Source of the DNA: Escherichia coli 042
GTDB lineage: Bacteria; Pseudomonadota; Gammaproteobacteria; Enterobacterales; Enterobacteriaceae
Reading direction: 5' to 3' (one strand)
NCBI RefSeq assembly: GCF_000027125.1
Contig: NC_017626.1
DNA length: 64,000 nt
Shown: positions 2,870 through 42,322 of the stretch, in pieces
Position numbering within the stretch: position 1 is the stretch's first letter
How the letters are laid out: each line of letters starts with the position of its first letter
Notes under the pieces: model-generated
Database searches by the model: none
What the model was told of the DNA's origin: nothing
Seen by the model: the letters and a program-made list of their open reading frames with translations, nothing else
Position numbers and translations under genes: made by a program

Positions 2870-3210
2870 CGACTTTTACCAGAGAGCAGTTAATAGCTCA
2901 CGCAGAGGAGACTATTGAAGCACAGAGACTGTGCATACCGGGCACAATCGACCATGACATCATCCGCACATATAAGATGGATATTGCTGTTCTGGAAATC
3001 GCACTGGTATCGCTGGCAGCAGAGCCAGCCGGTAAATTGCATGAATACAAACCAGTGGGATATCAGCGTCTGGTCGATGAGTTAACCATGCTGGTAAAGC
3101 AGTTAACCTGGCAACTGAGGAAAGCGAAGCCAGACTGCAAATTACCGGATAAGGCGATGAGTTATCTGGAGCGGAACGGACTGATAAGCGTGGAGGATAT
3201 TTTACGATGA
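2866..3210 (+). CDS. Hypothetical phage protein
   Basis: 114-aa ORF, start overlaps upstream stop. Confidence 0.45.
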
Positions 3211-3501
3211 CCTGGCCTGAAGCATTAACAACGGTAGGAATTGCGATGGCGGTGGCGCTGGTGGTGTATTCGATTTGCCGCTGGGGATAAAAACGGTTTG
3301 CGGGAAAAGGAGAGTTAAGTAGAATTGCAGCGGGTGCTTGAGGCTATCTGTCTCAGGCATGAACACCAAAAGGCAGATAGAGAAAAGCCCCAGTTAACAT
3401 TACGCGTCCGGCAAGACGCTTAACATTAATCTGAGGCCATATCTATGCTCTACACACGTAGGTTAGCCTCTTACGTGCCGAAAGGCAAGGAGAAGCAGGC
3501 T

Positions 3502-3657
3502 ATGAAGCAGCAAAAGGCGATGCTAATCGCCCTGATCGTCATCTGTTTAACCGTCATTGTGACGGCACTGGTAACGAGGAAAGACCTCTGCGAGGTACGA
3601 ATCCGAACCGGCCAGACGGAGGTCGCTGTCTTCACAGCTTACGAACCTGAGGAGTAA
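3502..3657 (+). CDS. hokD: Hok/Gef-family type I toxin (HokD/RelF-like)
   Basis: 51-aa product MKQQKAMLIALIVICLTVIVTALVTRKDLCEVRIRTGQTEVAVFTAYEPEE matches my recollection of the Hok family (TM helix, conserved Cys, C-terminal AYE); in-frame upstream extension from 3445; hairpins downstream. Confidence 0.8.
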   Translation: MKQQKAMLIALIVICLTVIVTALVTRKDLCEVRIRTGQTEVAVFTAYEPEE

Positions 3658-10146: not shown

Positions 10147-10222
10147 GGCCCTTTAGCTCAGTGGTGAGAGCGAGCGACTCATAATCGCCAGGTCGCTGGT
10201 TCAAATCCAGCAAGGGCCACCA
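10147..10222 (+). tRNA. ileZ: tRNA with CAT anticodon, Ile2 (lysidine)-type or Met
   Basis: 76-nt cloverleaf: acceptor ggccctt/aagggcc, T-arm gctgg-ttcaaat-ccagc, anticodon loop ctCATaa, 3' CCA; close to recalled E. coli tRNA-Ile2. Confidence 0.85.
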
Positions 10223-10229
10223 TCACATA

Positions 10230-10306
10230 CCGCCATTAGCTCATCAGGAAAGAGCGCCAGCCTTCGAAGCTGGTTGCGCGGAGTTCGGGTCCCCGAAGGC
10301 GGTCCA
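10230..10306 (+). tRNA. tRNA-Arg (anticodon TCG as read)
   Basis: 77-nt cloverleaf: anticodon stem ccagc/gctgg with loop ctTCGaa, 3' CCA; one mismatch each in acceptor and T stems. Confidence 0.6.
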
Positions 10307-10319
10307 TTATCTGTATCCT

Positions 10320-10396
10320 GCGTTGTTAGCTCAGCCGGACAGAGCAATTGCCTTCTAAGCAATCGGTCACTGGTTCGAATCCAGTACAACGCGCCA
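10320..10396 (+). tRNA. tRNA-Arg (anticodon TCT)
   Basis: 77-nt cloverleaf: acceptor gcgttgt/acaacgc, T-arm actgg-ttcgaat-ccagt, anticodon loop ctTCTaa, 3' CCA. Confidence 0.85.
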
Positions 10397-10440: not shown

Positions 10441-10656
10441 TCTCACAATTCAGGCGGTTGACTGTTGTCTGGTTTGCGGGGAGTTTGTTAAAAGAAACTG
10501 GCATGGTGAATCCCCCTGTGCGGAGGGGCAATCAGCGAGTAGGTATATGGGATAATCGCGGATTCAGGTGCTGGTACTGAATTCACCGGGAGGCACCCGG
10601 CACCATGCAATGGCACATAGCGCCACTCTCCAGCCCCTCTCCGGAGGGGCTTTTCT
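10441..10656 (+). repeat. Structured repeat unit 1 (sRNA-like: promoter-like box, hairpins, terminator)
   Basis: Shares with unit 2 the blocks tcacaattcag, ttgac, ttgttaaaa, gcatggtgaatccccctg.gcggagggg, gtataat/ggataat, caccgggaggcacccggcaccatg and terminator gcccctctccggaggggc+T-run. Confidence 0.55.
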
Positions 10657-10908
10657 GTGCCGGATACATCACAGTTTCTGGAACCTTAGGTACTACAGTA
10701 TCAGTCAGGGTGCTATATTTTCAGATGTGATGAAAGCCTGTCAGCAGGCAGGGCGTATCGGAAATGACCCAGTAGAGAAAACGTTGACTCAGATACCGGT
10801 GCTGAGTTACCGGGAAACCGGCATCACATGACCGCTATCCTTCCAGGCCCATCCGCTCCGGTGGGCCTTTTTACTGCAGAAAACAGGTTCCCCGTTAAAT
10901 GCTATGTT

Positions 10909-11141
10909 GCTCACAATTCAGTAAGTTGACAGTTGCCTGTCAGACTGGGCATTTGTTAAAAAAATTTCGCATGGTGAATCCCCCTGAGCGGAGGGGCGAC
11001 TGGTGACGGTATAATCTCTGATTATCAAAACGAGAATGACGCGGGTTTAGTGGCACCGGACTGAACTCACCGGGAGGCACCCGGCACCATGTGCATGATG
11101 ATACAGATACGCGGCTTTAGCCCCTCTCCGGAGGGGCTTTC
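10909..11141 (+). repeat. Structured repeat unit 2 (sRNA-like)
   Basis: Second diverged copy of the same ~220-bp unit, with a perfect TATAAT at 11010-11015. Confidence 0.55.
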
Positions 11142-11371
11142 TTATGGACAAAAAAAGCCCGCGCTGGGAGACGCGGGCGGCAAGGAATAAACAATAAAAC
11201 GTGAAGTAATATTTCAGCTGGCGAATAATACCCCATAGTAATCACTCTGCGCAACTGCGCGGTCTTTTTCGAATTGCGGGCTGTAGTCTCCCTTCTGCCA
11301 TTGTCCTGTAACTTCCGGACTTCAGCCTGCTCCTTATCTGACTCACAACATTATCCCGCCCGGGAGGATTC

Positions 11372-36901: not shown

Positions 36902-39900
36902 ATGACAGTAAAAATTTCTGGCGTGCTTAAAGATGGCACAGGAAAACCAGTACAGAACTGCACCATTGTGCTGAAGGCCAGACGAACCAGCAGCACGGTG
37001 GTGGTGAACACGGTGGCCTCTGAAAATCCGGATGAAGCCGGACGTTACAGCATGGATGTTGAGCATGGTCAGTACAGCGTCACCCTGCTGGTTGAAGGTT
37101 TTCCGCCTTCACATGCCGGGACCATTACCGTCTATGAAGGTTCCAGATCAGGTACGCTGAATGATTTTCTCGGTGCCATGACGGAGGATGATGTCCGACC
37201 GGAGGCACTGCGCCGCTTTGAGCAGATGGTGGAAGAGGTGTCACGTAACGCCTCCGCGGTTGCACAGAATACGGCAGCCGCGAAAAAATCAGCCAGCGAT
37301 GCCAGTGCATCAGCCAGCGAGGCGGCAACTCATGCAACCGATGCTGCAGCCTCAGCACGTGCCGCCAGCACGTCAGCCGGACAGGCCGCGTCGTCGGCTC
37401 AGTCAGCGTCTTCCAGCGCAGGAACGGCATCGACAAAGACCCGTGAAGCAGCAAAAAGTGCTGCTGCTGCAGAGTCATCAAAAAGCGCGGCAGCTACCAG
37501 CGCCAGTGCCGCGAAAACGTCAGAAACGAATGCCGCAGCATCACAAAAATCGGCAGCCACTTCTGCATCCACAGCGACCACGAAGGCGTCAGAAGCTGCC
37601 ACCTCGGCACGGGGTGCGGCGGCCTCAAAAGAGGCAGCGAAATCTTCAGAAACGAATGCATCATCAAGTGCCAGTAGTGCAGCTTCCTCGGCAACGGCGG
37701 CAGGAAATTCCGCGAAGGCGGCAAAAACGTCCGAGACGAACGCTAAGTCTTCTGAAACAGCAGCGGGACAGAGCGCCTCAGCTGCGGCAGGTTCAAAAAC
37801 AGCGGCTGCATTATCTGCCAGTGCCGCGTCAACAAGTGCCGGGCAGGCCTCAGCCAGTGCCACCGCCGCCGGAAAATCGGCAGAAAGCGCCGCATCATCC
37901 GCTTCAACAGCCACAACGAAGGCTGGCAAAGCCACTGAGCAAGCCACTGCAGCAGCGAGGTCTGCTTCTGCAGCAAAAACCTCTGAAACAAATGCAAAGA
38001 CTTCAGCAGACAATGCTGCTTCCTCTAAGGCGGCAGCCGCATCGTCAGCCAGTTCAGCGGCGTCATCGGCATCATCTGCGTCTGCTTCAAAAGATGAGGC
38101 GACCAGACAAGCGTCAGCAGCGAAAGGTAGTGCCACGACAGCAACAACGAAAGCATCAGAGGCGGCAGGCAGTGCGACGGCTGCATCTCAGAGCAAAGTT
38201 GCTGCTGAATCCGCGGCAACGCGCGCCGAGACAGCAGCAAAACGGGCAGAGGATATTGCATCCGCCGTGGCGCTGGAGGATGCGAGCACGACGAAAAAGG
38301 GGATAGTACAGCTCAGCAGTGCAACAAACAGCACCAGTGAAAAGCTGGCGGCAACGCCAAAGGCAGTTAAAACTGTTAAAGATAGTTCAGTTCAAAAAAC
38401 TGGCGACACAATGGGAGGGCAGTTAAAAATCAGCACGATAAATGCTCTTCGAATATTCAACCAAGCCTTTGGCCTTATTTTTAGGCGTTCCGAAGATCAT
38501 CTTCATCTTATTCCGACTAATGAAGGGGAGGGGGAAAATGGAGACATCGGTTCATTAAGACCATTCTCTATAAACTTAAGATCAGGGTTGGTGTCCATCG
38601 GTAATGGACTAAAAGTTGGTGGTAGTGTTACTGGTAATTTGACCGGAAACGCAGATACTGCGACCAAGATCAAGACAGCACGTAAGATTGGGGGCGTGGC
38701 ATTTGATGGATCGGCAGATATCAACTTGCCTGGAGTCAACGCTACCGGTAATCAAAACACTACAGGTAATGCTGCGACCGCCACGAAACTTCAGGCAGCC
38801 AGAACGATTAACGGTGTGTCATTTGATGGTAGTGCAAATATCACATTGACCCCTTCAAATATTGGGGCATTGGCATTAACTGGAGGGACTCTTTCAGGTG
38901 GTTTAACTGCTGCTGGTGAGGTTATTTCAAGGTCAGCAAATGGTCTGCGTATTGCCTATGGCAACTATGGATTCTTTATCCGAAATGATGGATCAAACAC
39001 ATATTTTATGTTGACAGATTCGGGTAACAGTCTTGGTACGCACAATAGCTTAAGGCCGTTTATAATTAGTAACCATACTGGCAATGTTACAATTGCAACT
39101 AAATTAAACGCGAGTGGTGGTATCACTGGATCTTTATCGGGTAATGCAAGCACAGCAACCAAATTGCAAACTGCAAGGACAATTAACGGCGTAAAATTTG
39201 ACGGCTCGGCAAATATTGAAGCGTTTCCGCCAGGTGTTCCGCTGCCGTGGCCATCAGATACACCACCTGCAGGTTATGCAATCATGCAGGGGCAGACGTT
39301 TGATAAGGCAGCATATCCGAAACTGGCTATTGCCTATCCTTCAGGTGTTATTCCAGATATGCGCGGCTGGACAATCAAGGGCAAACCCGCCAGTGGCCGG
39401 GCCGTATTGTCTCAGGAACAGGACGGCATTAAATCGCACACCCACAGCGCCAGCGCATCCAGTACGGATTTGGGGACGAAAAACACATCGTCGTTTGATT
39501 ACGGAACCAAATCCACGAATAACACCGGGGCGCATACCCATAGTATTAGCGGGACTGCAAATAGTGCCGGTGCGCACCAACACAAGAGTTCCGGTGCATT
39601 TGGTGGCACGAACACGAGCATTTTCCCTAATGGTTATACCGCGATTTCAAATCTAAGCGCGGGGATTATGAGCACAACAAGCGGTAGTGGCCTGACTCGT
39701 AATGCAGGGAAGACATCATCAGATGGTGCTCATACCCACTCGCTGTCCGGCACTGCTGCAAGCGCAGGCGCACATGCACATACTGTCGGTATTGGTGCTC
39801 ATACGCACTCCGTTGCGATTGGCTCACATGGACACACCATCACCGTTAACGCTGCTGGTAACGCGGAAAACACCGTCAAAAACATCGCATTTAACTATAT

Positions 39901-39916
39901 TGTGAGGCTTGCATAA
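36902..39916 (+). CDS. stf: Side tail fibre protein with long Ala/Ser/Thr-rich repetitive region
   Basis: 1004 aa; repeated KTSETNA-containing modules at roughly aa 100-470; repeats of '[G/N]GV(S/K)FDGSA' in the C-terminal half. Confidence 0.85.
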
Positions 39917-40500
39917 TGGTATTCAGAATGAGTGAACAACCACGGACCATAACAATTTATAATCTGCTGGCCGGAACTAATGAATTTATTGGTGAAGGTG
40001 ATGCATATATTCCGCCTCATACAGGTCTGCCAGCAAACAGTACCGATATTGCACCGCCAGATATTCCGGCAGGCTTCGTGGCTGTTTTCAACAGTGATGA
40101 GGCATCGTGGCATCTCGTTGAAGATCATCGGGGTAAAACGGTTTATGACGTGGCTTCCGGCGACGCGTTATTTATTTCTGAACTCGGTCCGTTACCGGAA
40201 AATGTTACCTGGTTATCGCCGGAAGGGGAGTTTCAGAAGTGGAACGGCACAGCCTGGGTGAAGGATACGGAAGCAGAAAAACTGTTCCGGATCCGGGAGG
40301 CGGAAGAAACAAAAAACAACCTGATGCAGGTAGCCAGTGAGCATATTGCGCCGCTTCAGGATGCTGCAGATCTGGAAATTGCAACGGAGGAAGAAACCTC
40401 ATTGCTGGAAGCCTGGAAAAAGTATCGGGTGTTGCTGAACCGTGTTGATACATCAACTGCACCTGATATTGAGTGGCCTACGAACCCTGTCAGGGAGTAA
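39916..40500 (+). CDS. tfa: Tail fibre assembly protein
   Basis: 194 aa directly after stf with ATGA overlap. Confidence 0.8.
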
Positions 40501-40554
40501 TCATTGGGATTATGCCGCAGCACGTCTTAAGCAAGAACGTGCTGCGGTTGGATG

Positions 40555-41223
40555 CTATTTTTTCCCTGAAGCGGAAAACATTACTACAGTACCTTGAACC
40601 TTGGTTTTAACATTCTCGAAATGCTCTGAGAGTATATGTGTTAAGCCTTCTTCGGAATCTTTTGTGTTTGAAAAGATGCCTTTCTGATTGTAAATGCGCA
40701 TCAGTTTTTGACCGAAGCTATTGTGCACAACTCCATCGCCAAGAATTGTGGCTCCGTATAGAGTTCCATCGTCAGTTAAGGCCTGCGCCGCATTGCGTAT
40801 TACACAGCTTTTTGTAGATATATTTCCAGGCAGGCAGTGAAGAAGGTAAAACATGGAAATGGAATCAAATTGACCATGTAACGCCGCGGGATAAGGTTCA
40901 AAAACATCATGGCTAATTTTATGTTTAATTTTTGATTCCCCAGCCCTTGTAGATGCCGCGTTCAGGCTAGCTTCGTTCAAATCCATTAAAGATATCAGAC
41001 TACTCTCAGGTACGTGAGTAAGGTAAAACCCAGTTCCAACACCAATATCCAGATGGTTGTTACCTAAATGTTCCAGAAAGTGTGGAAGAAGGTGTTCCTT
41101 TGTAGGACATCCCCATGCAAGCCGATTTGATACTCCCAAAACCCACCAGTCATAAAGCTTTAGGGTAAGTGGTGTGTAAATTTTAGCCCCATCATCTGTG
41201 TTTTTTTTCATTAATTTCACCAT
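40555..41223 (-). CDS. Class I SAM-dependent methyltransferase (cargo gene)
   Basis: 222 aa, AT-rich, opposite strand; HLDIGVGTGF resembles the Rossmann motif I of SAM methyltransferases. Confidence 0.6.
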   Translation of the reverse strand: MVKLMKKNTDDGAKIYTPLTLKLYDWWVLGVSNRLAWGCPTKEHLLPHFLEHLGNNHLDIGVGTGFYLTHVPESSLISLMDLNEASLNAASTRAGESKIKHKISHDVFEPYPAALHGQFDSISMFYLLHCLPGNISTKSCVIRNAAQALTDDGTLYGATILGDGVVHNSFGQKLMRIYNQKGIFSNTKDSEEGLTHILSEHFENVKTKVQGTVVMFSASGKK

Positions 41224-41279
41224 GTTATAGTTTTATTTGTGAATTAAATCAATTATGGCGATGAATTACAAGGGGTTAA

Positions 41280-41549
41280 ATGCTGCCGCAGCATAGCGAT
41301 ATTGAAATAGCCTGGTATGCTTCGATACAGCAGGAGCCGAATGGCTGGAAGACCGTCACCACACAGTTCTACATCCAGGAATTCAGTGAGTATATTGCGC
41401 CACTGCAGGATGCTGTAGATCTGGAAATCGCAACGGAGGAAGAAAGATCGTTGCTGGAGGCATGGAATAAATATCGGGTATTGTTGAATCGTGTTGATAC
41501 ATCAACTGCACCTGATATTGAGTGGCCTGCAAATCCTGTCAGGGAGTAA
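41280..41549 (+). pseudogene. Truncated second copy of tail fibre assembly gene
   Basis: 89-aa ORF whose last ~55 aa nearly duplicate the C-terminus of Tfa 39916..40500. Confidence 0.5.
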
Positions 41550-42322
41550 TCATTGGGATTATGCCGCAGACACGTCGTATGCAGGAACGTGCTGCGGTTA
41601 GTTTGTGAGCTTTCGATAGTGGTTGTTATTTTTGCCCTTATTTGTTCCGGAGGCCATGGTTCAATGGTCCGTCTGCCCCCTGTGGTGATGTCAGCAAAAT
41701 CAGCCACTGCGCGAACCACAATAGCCCGGGAAGATGCTGAAGATCACCAGGTAAAGCTGTCAGCGCAGAAACTGGAAGAACTGCTCGCATCAATGGTTAA
41801 GGATGAGGTTGATCGCAATGATGGGATTTATTGACGTCAGCGAGAGCAGAAGGAAGAACTGAATAACCTGAATGATTTACGCTCAATCAGAGCGATGATG
41901 ATTGGCAGTAATTAGCGGTCAATTTCGGTTTTTTTGGCTGTGCGCTCCCCGCCCAGCATTGCGCGTCAATTAGCCCCAAAAAAACGAAAAAGTTACAATC
42001 AAGTAAAAAATTCCTTCTGCAAAACTAAAAAAGATTTCAATAAAATCAGACAGTTAAAAGCATAAAAAAAGGTACAAAAAAAACATCTCAAAGTCTTGTT
42101 TTTTGCTTCAAATACAATTGGTTATTGTGTTTTTTGAAACCTACCAGTCTGGTACATGGATATCGATACCACCGCCAATTATAAGCTGGGCGGTGCACAG
42201 CAACACGATAGCGTACGCCTCGATCCGTGGGTGTTTATGTTCTCAGCAGGATATCGTTTTTAATTCCGCACAAAAACGACCCCGTAATATACGGGGTCAA
42301 TAAGGACATGGTATAAAGGGTA

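Follow-up and report, generated by a model that had tools for sequence, protein, structure and literature searches.

Genes and features at the locus

Within the window (the whole stretch of 64,000 nucleotides of Escherichia coli 042 DNA that was analysed), a predicted methyltransferase gene was found to lie between an intact tail fibre assembly gene, tfa, and a truncated tfa-like ORF close to the right end of a prophage. The features of the locus are as follows.

36902..39916, plus strand: stf side tail fibre gene, 1004 aa, upstream of the cassette (from the ORF list)
39916..40500, plus strand: tfa, intact tail fibre assembly gene of the lambda orf-194 type, 194 aa (PHROG 105 'tail fiber assembly', E 3e-100)
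40324..40549, plus strand: left direct repeat, 177 nt from the tfa 3' end (conserved C-terminal domain) and 49 nt beyond it including a hairpin
40514..40548, unstranded: left hairpin, lying where tfa and the methyltransferase gene converge
40555..41223, minus strand: ybcY-type class I SAM-dependent methyltransferase ORF, 222 aa (PHROG 2132, Pfam, RefSeq WP_000239881.1)
41224..41252, minus strand: promoter-like element TTGATT-17-TATAAC of the methyltransferase gene, read from the sequence (-35 at 41252-41247, -10 at 41229-41224)
41279..41252, minus strand: second promoter-like site, predicted from the sequence
41280..41549, plus strand: tfaX-type truncated tail fibre assembly ORF, intact, 89 aa (PHROG 2341, E 4e-61, full length)
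41373..41599, plus strand: right direct repeat, whose hairpin occupies approximately 41563-41598
41646..41915, plus strand: DUF4376 pseudogene remnant (as annotated by RefSeq for strain H3 and the empty-site genomes, whose sequence is identical)
42138..42263, plus strand: ompW 3' fragment, marking where the prophage ends on its right (attR side; RefSeq 'OmpW family outer membrane protein, missing N-terminus', identical sequence)

Homologous stf loci were found to be annotated as 'side tail fiber protein Stf' or 'prophage tail fiber N-terminal domain-containing protein', and the tfa gene that follows shares approximately 92% nucleotide identity with tfa of phage lambda. A passage of PMC9608196 citing North et al. 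2019 describes the N-terminal domain of Tfa as non-conserved and fibre-binding and its C-terminal domain as conserved. The ORF to the right, tfaX, had been described in a first-pass annotation of this DNA as a truncated tfa copy. Its unique N-terminus of 32 aa precedes a conserved Tfa C-terminal domain (PHROG 105 over residues 29-87), with a Shine-Dalgarno-like AGGGG upstream of its ATG, and RefSeq likewise treats its homologous part (equivalent to 41373-41549) as a tail fiber assembly pseudogene lacking an N-terminus. Searching with the N-terminal 41 aa of TfaX (tblastn) gave matches almost only beside the methyltransferase gene in E. coli phages, with weak matches in Ayreon and Klebsiella phages, and for this reason no source gene for the N-terminus was identified. 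The 3' end of tfaX varies among phages, the ORF being interrupted (a pseudogene) in K-12 and split in phage 2G7b. No NCBIfam match was obtained for Tfa, TfaX or Stf. Rfam family IS009 (RF02111, a candidate sRNA) was matched at 40259-40457 (225 bits against a gathering score of 117) and, slightly under that score, at the right copy (41303-41506, 112.5 bits); as the match lies wholly within tfa coding sequence, it is uninformative on RNA function. To the right of tfaX, the DUF4376 remnant forms a flank common to prophages with and without the methyltransferase gene, and the ompW fragment is followed by yciE, yciF, yciG and trpA.

The two tfa ends belong to a direct repeat of approximately 226 nt (40324-40549 versus 41373-41599), approximately 89% identical and with one indel. 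Two segments (40324-40520 versus 41373-41569, 197 nt, 89%; 40521-40549 versus 41571-41599, 29 nt, 90%) are separated by this indel of 1 nt, and gapped, weaker similarity between the copies reaches approximately 50 nt farther upstream. As the tfa stop lies at 40500, the repeat comprises 177 nt of tfa and 49 nt downstream of it. The first-pass annotation had placed the second copy at 41386-41600 (about 215 bp at about 90% identity, made up of about 170 bp of tfa and about 50 bp downstream), which was essentially right, the start being located approximately 13 nt earlier. Comparison of the left copy to the whole window (blastn) returned these two copies only (100% for itself; 88.5%, E 8e-81, for the right copy). 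The 3' part of the right copy is of the same type as the single copy of the empty sites described below, and the left-type tfa end accompanies the methyltransferase gene in DLP12 of K-12 and in phage 2G7b. No invertase was found in the 64-kb window (tblastn with the invertase of phage Turner, best E 3.1), and an alternative stf/tfa set in the opposite orientation is absent.

The hairpin previously noticed in the repeat is a real one in both copies. On the plus strand, the 76-nt stretch holding the left hairpin has a folding energy of -28.6 kcal/mol (z -4.4, equalled by 0 of 200 shuffles) and on the minus strand at -25.4 (z -3.8), with the right hairpin folding at -24.2 kcal/mol (z -2.2). The same hairpin is found 3' of tfa in lambda. 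These hairpins may act as terminators or 3'-end stabilisers. The left hairpin has no U-run directly 3' of it and no U-tract on the minus strand; because it was not called by the terminator scan, its role can only be suggested.

The methyltransferase ORF was confirmed as the AT-rich, minus-strand gene initially noted, with a GC content of 0.38-0.45 compared to 0.47-0.52 in tfa. The match to PHROG 2132 (E 7.9e-157) aligns residues 5-222 with profile positions 1-218 of 218. As this profile and the homologues begin at residue 5, the true start is probably the ATG at 41211, which would give a protein of 218 aa. A cluster with 6,589 member sequences of E. coli matches the protein at 99% identity. 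Its promoter-like element TTGATT-17-TATAAC is identical to the ybcY element in a genomic SELEX table for the K-12 RpoD holoenzyme, in which the ybcY/tfaX spacer is given as an RNA-polymerase-binding promoter region marked H-NS and a tfaX promoter is also listed (PMC3946193). A ybcY mutant had no phenotype in a Hha toxicity assay (PMC2408971), the sole assay found. No functional study of ybcY or tfaX was found, the literature consisting of the use of the locus as a marker near ompT, the SELEX promoter table, the negative Hha toxicity result and work on the tfaX/appY spacer; a literature search for papers joining tail fibre assembly, methyltransferase and moron returned nothing relevant.

Occupied and empty sites among E. 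coli prophages

The arrangement is already known as tfaD-ybcY-tfaX of the DLP12 prophage of K-12, a long-annotated locus whose identity the first-pass annotation had overlooked. In K-12 (MC4100), the locus is composed of tfa'-methyltransferase (frameshifted)-tfa'-appY-ompT and is 97.4% identical; ybcY, being frameshifted, is therefore dispensable there. The annotation of PhiR26_1 names the gene 'YbcY'. Among complete E. coli genomes, 2,735 of 5,426 were found to hold at least 80% of the region 40300-41650. The methyltransferase gene shows 0-2 nt differences among phages 2G7b, PhiR26_1, PhiR68_2 and Turner, with differing tail fibres and neighbours, and the outer limits of homology vary (40380 or 40515 at the left; 41504, 41526 or 41599 at the right). 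A PinQ/PinR-type serine invertase and ynaE were identified between tfa and the methyltransferase gene in Turner and PhiR68_2. Many truncated variants of the methyltransferase are present in the protein database.

In E. coli, the methyltransferase gene is prophage-borne and not core, so the reservation that it might be a host core gene does not apply. Lambda has a single tfa end with its hairpin, followed directly by ea47, with no methyltransferase gene, a gene also missing at the same ompW site from prophages that are homologous in other respects. These absences, together with the lower GC content and the published K-12 promoter region, agree with the earlier description of the gene as cargo.

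Empty sites with one repeat, which the first-pass annotation had proposed to look for in homologous prophages, were searched for using a synthetic deletion junction. This empty junction was matched in one piece in 20 genomes, which have the same DUF4376' right flank, and the occupied junction was identified in 866. Eight of the nine empty sites inspected are at the ompW site, with the remaining one (rl0044) located beside uspF/ompN. In all nine, the single tfa end is left-copy-like at its 5' side and right-copy-like at its 3' side, and carries the hairpin of the right copy. The final switch lies within 40441-40479 in most of these and within 40486-40526 in EFF60, giving at least two distinct intervals, and some empty-site copies possess extra right-type sites farther upstream. 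The chimeric structure of these nine sites and their differing switch intervals support the proposal, made at first pass, that the gene may be gained and lost through ordinary recombination between tfa copies. The ratio of 866 to 20 and the differing switch points would favour repeated loss, and the empty site could also be ancestral, with the occupied site being derived from it by double crossover.

The predicted methyltransferase and its likely substrate class

The enzyme is predicted to be a class I (Rossmann-fold) SAM-dependent methyltransferase. Besides PHROG 2132, HMM classification identified only the generic Pfam domains Methyltransf_12/23/25/11, along with a weak match to MTS (E 0.007), and in NCBIfam the protein scored far below the cut-offs (the best scores were 17.4 bits for CpaM and 16.9 bits for RquA, the cut-offs being 180 and 175). 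In an alignment of 84 sequences (218-aa numbering), motif I (LDIGVGTG) is present with D55, G57, G59 and G61 nearly invariant, D77, the acidic residue closing strand 2 and assigned by its position to SAM-ribose binding, is invariant, and the motifs YDxWVL, HLDxGVGTG and LLHCLPG are common. Comparison to the Enterobacter homologue gave a pN of 0.215 and a pS of 0.71, indicating purifying selection; within E. coli, the 0-2 differences are too few for dN/dS to be informative.

An AlphaFold2 model (pLDDT 94.2, pTM 0.90) gave a single domain of seven strands alternating with helices. A fold search of the PDB returned 1,326 methyltransferase-type matches at E <= 0.001, the best 50 of which were all small-molecule O-, N- or C-methyltransferases, with no DNA or RNA methyltransferase among them. 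Neighbours included juvenile-hormone acid, phosphatidylethanolamine, SgvM, CysG, NodS, UbiG and polyketide C-methyltransferases, the nearest solved structures being just 13-21% identical. Searching the PDB by sequence gave weak matches (E approximately 1e-3 with a single sequence and 5e-7 with a profile), all of them generic small-molecule methyltransferases. In AFDB, the top match was 'AdoMet-dependent methyltransferase DLP12 prophage', and relatives included fungal proteins named putative O-methyltransferase, verB and vrtF (36-46% identity, TM 0.89-0.93, E 1e-24 to 1e-28), verB having been described as 'a putative methyltransferase' (PMC8176439). The family is large, uncharacterised and without a solved structure, and comprises bacterial and fungal members. 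A fusion of one relative to a terpene-type cytochrome P450 hints at small-molecule chemistry; the other fusion proteins had no NCBIfam match besides weak methyltransferase matches.

The DNA-methyltransferase motifs (D/N/S)PP(Y/F/W) and PCQ are absent, there being no PP or PC dipeptide in the 222 aa, and no target-recognition domain is present in the 218-aa single-domain model. Alongside the generic Pfam domains and the small-molecule enzymes that make up the best 50 of the 1,326 fold matches, the absence of (D/N/S)PP(Y/F/W) supports a small-molecule and not a DNA methyltransferase; the earlier impression had been of a small-molecule or RNA enzyme rather than one acting on DNA. A PADLOC match to mad2 (14 bits, E 0.0033) was rejected as noise. 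The chromosomal homologues examined (Salmonella, Enterobacter, Yersinia and three metagenomic relatives) are stand-alone genes, whose neighbours revealed no recurring partner and no clue to the substrate; a zinc alcohol dehydrogenase and a 4HBT thioesterase were each seen once beside such homologues. The enzyme would appear to methylate a small molecule, most likely at the hydroxyl of a phenolic or enolic compound, and to have no action on DNA and no part in tail-fibre biology.

Proposed explanation and comparison with known systems

It is considered quite probable that the region represents a moron carried by lambdoid prophages of E. coli, the ybcY cassette, which moves by homologous recombination at tfa ends. 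The cassette would consist of the 3' end of tfa with its hairpin, a convergent gene of lower GC content with a sigma-70 promoter that encodes the 218-aa methyltransferase, and the 5' part of tfaX. Both sides would be copies of the part of tfa encoding the conserved C-terminal (oligomerisation) domain, and because the sequence of this domain is common to otherwise different phages, recombination could put the cassette behind any compatible tfa. Insertion would leave an intact recipient tfa at the left and a tfa remnant at the right, while a single crossover between the direct repeats of approximately 226 nt would delete the cassette and restore a single chimeric tfa, in frame and with the right-hand hairpin behind it. 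Directly seen in the genomes compared are the repeats, both occupied and empty alleles at one site, the chimeric make-up of the empty ones and a near-identical methyltransferase gene across phages that differ in tail fibres and context. The enzyme may be expressed from the prophage in the lysogen, with H-NS repression in K-12.

A different origin for the tfa ends would be a leftover tandem duplication or two-chaperone module, with tfaX as a working chaperone, the methyltransferase gene inserted independently and the repeats having no role in mobility. The intact 89-aa ORF with its Shine-Dalgarno-like AGGGG, its place in a recurrent phage family (PHROG 2341), the tfaX promoter of the K-12 SELEX table (PMC3946193) and the further chaperone-like remnant (DUF4376) just downstream would be in keeping with this, but tfaX has no N-terminal fibre-binding domain and its 3' end is variable, being interrupted in K-12 and split in 2G7b. 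A simple duplication also fits poorly because the divergence of the copies is uneven, with gapped and weak similarity upstream of 41373 and approximately 89% identity after it, and recombination would be expected to give exactly the left/right chimeras seen in the empty alleles. This origin is judged improbable. Far less credible still is a Pin/Gin-type invertible tail-fibre region with the repeats as recombination sites, for which the Pin-type serine invertase near the methyltransferase gene in Turner and PhiR68_2 might speak. Invertase crossover sites are typically much shorter than these repeats of 226 nt, and the window contains neither an invertase nor an alternative stf/tfa set. The repeats being direct and not inverted, and the invertase missing, inversion is refuted for the window, and the doubt raised on this account at first pass is removed.

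Other explanations concern the enzyme itself. Orphan DNA methyltransferases are frequent in phage accessory regions, and against this background the gene might have an anti-defence or epigenetic function, its product targeting DNA (restriction escape) or rRNA/tRNA. Weak matches to Pfam MTS (E 0.007), RsmC (an rRNA enzyme, E 0.0018) and PADLOC mad2 (E 0.0033) could be read in this manner; the missing (D/N/S)PP(Y/F/W) and PCQ motifs and target-recognition domain, the lack of any DNA or RNA methyltransferase among the best 50 of the 1,326 PDB fold matches and the fungal or stand-alone chromosomal nature of the close family members argue against it, making a nucleic-acid target quite improbable. 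That the gene is a decaying, functionless passenger hitch-hiking with a recombination-prone tfa end is thought very improbable. Its frameshift in K-12, the H-NS mark on the promoter spacer, the lack of a phenotype in the one published mutant assay found and the many truncated database variants would suit a passenger, but the cluster of the intact 222-aa allele has 6,589 members at >= 90% identity, differences across phages amount to 0-2 nt, and the family shows purifying selection and invariant residues in the catalytic region.

A further and tentative suggestion, in our view rather unlikely, is that ybcY is a lysogenic-conversion gene recently spread among many unrelated lambdoid prophages of E. 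coli, as the 0-2 nt differences between phages of differing tail fibres and neighbours might indicate, and that its product O-methylates a specific gut- or host-derived small molecule (phenolic, catechol or pyrone-like), with lysogens being favoured. Were this the case, the tfa-end repeats would make for a portable and reversible trait. The locus itself will be of little surprise to specialists, the gene and its two tfa neighbours having been annotated in K-12 for decades. It does provide a clean natural case of the Tfa C-terminal module serving as a homologous 'linker' for the gain and deletion of cargo in lambdoid prophages, with both states and several crossover points documented in public genomes. 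Few cargo genes of E. coli prophages are as widespread as ybcY. Identification of its substrate would modestly but genuinely advance the understanding of lysogenic conversion.

Comparison to tfaD-ybcY-tfaX of DLP12, a defective lambdoid prophage, showed that all three elements are arranged and oriented alike, with approximately 97% identity over 40300-41526 and identical hexamers of the ybcY promoter. Dissimilarities are that in the window an intact stf precedes a full-length tfa, the methyltransferase gene is unshifted and tfaX has no internal stop; the right flank is formed by the DUF4376 remnant and ompW site instead of appY-ompT, and the 3' end of tfaX is of another type. With the invertible segments (G of Mu, C of P1 and P of e14; Gin/Cin/Pin), the locus shares repeated tail-fibre/tfa sequence downstream of stf and, in some relatives, a pin gene near ybcY. 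It differs from these in its direct repeats, in having no invertase and no alternative fibre end, and in the outcome, which would be the deletion or insertion of cargo and not a switch of host range.

The fungal proteins verB (verrucosidin cluster) and vrtF (viridicatumtoxin cluster) belong to the same family by fold and sequence and are of similar size (approximately 220-250 aa). Unlike these, whose assignments are largely inferred, neither the phage gene nor its enterobacterial homologues have a polyketide synthase or biosynthetic gene beside them. Like other lambdoid morons (e.g. lom and bor of lambda, or cargo genes downstream of tail-fibre genes), ybcY is an extra gene between genes that are adjacent elsewhere. 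It is accompanied by a predicted promoter of its own and a hairpin 3' of it, and its GC content is lower (0.38-0.45 against approximately 0.50). To our knowledge, most described morons have not been reported with flanking repeats of this kind. The ybcY cassette is distinguished from them in that 226 nt of the adjoining structural gene are duplicated on either side of it, which offers an obvious homologous route for its insertion and excision.

Gene order and tfa-end repeats of the ybcY region

The first-pass annotation had placed a minus-strand methyltransferase gene between tfa and a truncated copy of tfa, and this observation was confirmed by the ORF list. The features of the region, by window position, are as follows:

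directly before tfa, side tail fibre gene, 1004 aa
39916-40500, plus strand, tfa, 194 aa
40555-41223, minus strand, methyltransferase ORF (ybcY) after tfa, 222 aa
41252-41224, minus strand, promoter-like TTGATT-17-TATAAC directly upstream of the methyltransferase ORF, read from the sequence
41279-41252, minus strand, second promoter-like site, upstream of the TTGATT-17-TATAAC element
41280-41549, plus strand, tfaX ORF after the methyltransferase gene, 89 aa
42138-42263, ompW 3' fragment, the sole ompW remnant on this side, followed by yciE, yciF, yciG and the trp operon

The end of Tfa was found to recur as the last 57 residues of the tfaX ORF. The repeat search identified two segments, 40324-40520 against 41373-41569 (197 nt, 89%) and 40521-40549 against 41571-41599 (29 nt, 90%), with a one-base offset between them. 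Using the left copy as a blastn query, exactly two copies were found in the whole 64-kb window, the second with 88.5% identity (E 8e-81), a match far above chance, and gapped alignment showed weaker similarity between the copies reaching approximately 50 nt further upstream. Each copy is closed by a strong hairpin, with folding energies of -28.6 kcal/mol (z -4.4, 76-nt stretch) on the left and -24.2 kcal/mol (z -2.2) on the right. The direct repeat with its hairpin is therefore as had been described, and the methyltransferase gene is indeed AT-rich (GC 0.38-0.45, versus approximately 0.50 in tfa). The same hairpin is present 3' of the lambda tfa. Between the window (40514-40548) and lambda (L002, approximately 3115-3150), one stem position differs in both arms, being A-T in lambda and C-G in the window by eye, which suggests that the hairpin structure itself is conserved.

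A 45-aa plus-strand ORF (40473-40610), a 'hypothetical protein' in RefSeq and named 'nucleocapsid protein' in one K-12 record, overlaps the tfa stop codon, the hairpin and the methyltransferase 3' end, and seems to be a spurious prediction. In Rfam, the family IS009 (RF02111, a candidate RNA gene; gathering score 117) was matched by the 3' part of the tfa coding sequence (40259-40457, 225 bits) and by the tfaX copy (41303-41506, 112.5 bits); here it appears to represent the conserved Tfa C-terminal coding region and not evidence of an sRNA.

The methyltransferase and tfaX are recurrent phage proteins, as the former matched PHROG 2132 over the full profile length (E 8e-157, from residue 5) and the latter PHROG 2341 over its full length. 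Megablast against phages identified the tfa-methyltransferase-tfa' block in PhiR26_1 (annotated 'putative uncharacterized protein YbcY'), PhiR30_1 and PhiR29, and a methyltransferase-tfa' block, with a left tfa end that is fragmentary at most, in 2G7b, ev243, Turner, Kati and PhiR68_2. On the DLP12 prophage of K-12 (MC4100), the order tfa'-methyltransferase (frameshifted)-tfa' (internal stop)-appY-ompT was found at 97.4% identity, which is the K-12 region known as tfaD-ybcY-tfaX. A match covering 80% or more of 40300-41650 is present in 2,735 of the 5,426 complete E. coli genomes. The window thus carries a ybcY locus of the DLP12 type, an arrangement already known and very common.

The lambdoid prophage of the window sits in ompW. 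Between tfaX and the prophage end lies a DUF4376 pseudogene interrupted by a stop (41646-41915), a tail-fibre-chaperone-like remnant common to prophages with and without the methyltransferase, so that remains of two or more further tail-fibre modules are found at the right end. A tRNA-Met/Arg/Arg cluster (10147-10396) followed by two STnc100-family sRNA copies (10472-10662 and 10940-11149), and a sok antitoxin RNA (3332-3507), are features usual in Stx-phage-like lambdoid prophages. In the side tail fibre gene, the N-terminal to central part (37200-38300) is a long repetitive stretch rich in Ala, Ser and Thr that contains several 33-nt repeat units, and the long ORFs crossing it in alternative frames of both strands are probably compositional.

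The putative methyltransferase and its expression

HMM classification, proposed as a check in the first-pass annotation, returned only generic class I Pfam domains (Methyltransf_12 at 6e-9, plus families 23, 25, 11 and 31) besides PHROG 2132; no NCBIfam model came close to its cut-off and PADLOC gave no credible match. The family is well defined, as exhaustive HMMER searching of 1.84 billion representative proteins recovered 799 relatives with E <= 1e-10, of which 197 reach E <= 1e-30. Relatives that carry a name (56-90% identity) come from across Enterobacteriaceae, Aeromonas and Shewanella, and each is annotated 'class I SAM-dependent methyltransferase'. The homologue of Salmonella, Enterobacter and Yersinia is a stand-alone chromosomal gene beside which no conserved partner gene was found, and the gene contexts of more distant homologues likewise gave no clue. 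Comparison with the Enterobacter homologue (pN 0.215, pS 0.71) indicates purifying selection.

In an alignment of 84 sequences, D77, H125, G153, N182 and D185 were invariant and the motifs HLDxGxGxG and HCxPG nearly so. The AlphaFold2 model is of high confidence (pLDDT 94.2, pTM 0.90) and has a seven-stranded class I fold, and every one of its best 50 PDB matches (13-21% identity, TM 0.5-0.7) is a small-molecule O-, N- or C-methyltransferase, the set including juvenile-hormone acid, phosphatidylethanolamine, phosphoethanolamine, SgvM and CysG methyltransferases, NodS, UbiG, CouO/NovO and polyketide C-methyltransferase domains. AFDB50 relatives were much closer than those of the PDB (TM ~0.9, 36-51% identity); they come from Pseudomonas, Pantoea, Vibrio, Legionella, actinomycetes and many fungi, and a few of them bear the name putative O-methyltransferase, verB or vrtF. 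In the clusters for verrucosidin and viridicatumtoxin, verB and vrtF are tailoring genes (PMC8176439, PMC4294208). A terpene-type cytochrome P450 is the fusion partner of one relative. Neither PP nor PC occurs as a dipeptide in the window's protein, which is thus without DNA methyltransferase catalytic motifs. The earlier preference for a small-molecule or RNA enzyme over a DNA methyltransferase is supported; a putative small-molecule methyltransferase, most likely of the O-type, is the best-supported assignment.

A K-12 genomic SELEX table gives exactly TTGATT-17-TATAAC as the ybcY element, with an H-NS mark on the ybcY/tfaX spacer (PMC3946193). The TATAAC -10 hexamer lies immediately before the first ATG of the ORF (41223); as homologues and the PHROG profile begin at the second ATG (41211), 12 nt further, the latter is the likely start. 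From its sequence, ybcY mRNA may be nearly leaderless (a few bases) or may be started from the promoter-like site at 41279-41252. The only phenotype test found in the literature is of a ybcY mutant, in which Hha toxicity was unchanged (PMC2408971).

Empty sites and probable recombination between the repeats

In lambda, a single tfa end with its hairpin is followed directly by ea47, without a methyltransferase gene. A synthetic deletion product, in which the left flank with its repeat runs directly into the sequence 3' of the right repeat, was matched unbroken in MS15047, BKQ37E, JP538 and isolate 2016-02-324 (NZ_LR882050.1), where stf-tfa leads straight into the DUF4376 pseudogene and ompW fragment seen in the window. 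Using a 501-nt junction query built so that occupied loci stay below 80% coverage, this empty junction was found in 20 genomes, and the occupied junction (methyltransferase 5' end, tfaX and DUF4376 pseudogene) in 866. The single-repeat empty site anticipated for homologous prophages thus exists. The empty-site prophage of strain rl0044 (L025) lies at another chromosomal site, adjoining uspF and ompN.

Nine empty alleles were scored at sites separating the left from the right copy, and all nine possess a left-type 5' end, a right-type 3' end and a right-type hairpin, the pattern expected of crossovers between the two repeats. The final left-to-right switch lies at 40441-40479 in most, and at 40486-40526 in EFF60, in which the cassette-linked ACGAAC tfa end is kept with the right-hand hairpin; scattered right-type sites occur further upstream in MS15047, BKQ37E, PigCaeca_2 and EC15. 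These chimeras, with their differing switch points, support the interpretation that the cargo is gained and lost by recombination in tfa. For any single allele, a double-crossover gain, reciprocal to loss, is a possible origin; repeated loss of the cassette is favoured by the differing switch points and the 866:20 ratio. The very uneven divergence between the copies makes a simple tandem duplication a poor fit, as does tfaX, which has no fibre-binding domain and in other genomes is cut short or broken in various ways. An invertible segment with an invertase, named beforehand as a refuting finding, was rejected, as the repeats are direct and the window holds no Pin-type invertase (that of Turner gave no tblastn match in the 64 kb).

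Only 0-2 nt differences were found in the methyltransferase gene among four phages differing in tail fibres and neighbours. It is accompanied by the left-type tfa end and hairpin in K-12 and 2G7b. The right copy has a constant 5' part (tfaX N-terminus) and a 3' part variable among phages. The outer limits of homology vary (left 40380 or 40515; right 41504, 41526 or 41599). In PhiR68_2 (L019, 1854-3027) and Turner (L020, 1854-3027), tfa is separated from the ybcY-tfaX block by a PinQ/PinR-type invertase and a ynaE-family gene, the methyltransferase gene has no directly adjoining left tfa repeat and homology begins at window 40515; the cassette therefore also occurs without the left repeat.

The repeated segment codes for the Tfa C-terminal domain. 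PMC9608196, citing North et al. 2019, describes Tfa-type chaperones as having a conserved C-terminal half involved in oligomerisation and a variable, fibre-binding N-terminal domain. Being common to otherwise different phages, the C-terminal coding sequence is a natural site for homologous exchange.

Approximately half of complete E. coli genomes carry the ybcY cargo gene. The ybcY region of the window appears to work in the manner of a classical lambdoid moron; what is special to it is that the neighbouring tfa gene has its conserved end duplicated around it, which provides the cargo with a homologous way in and out.
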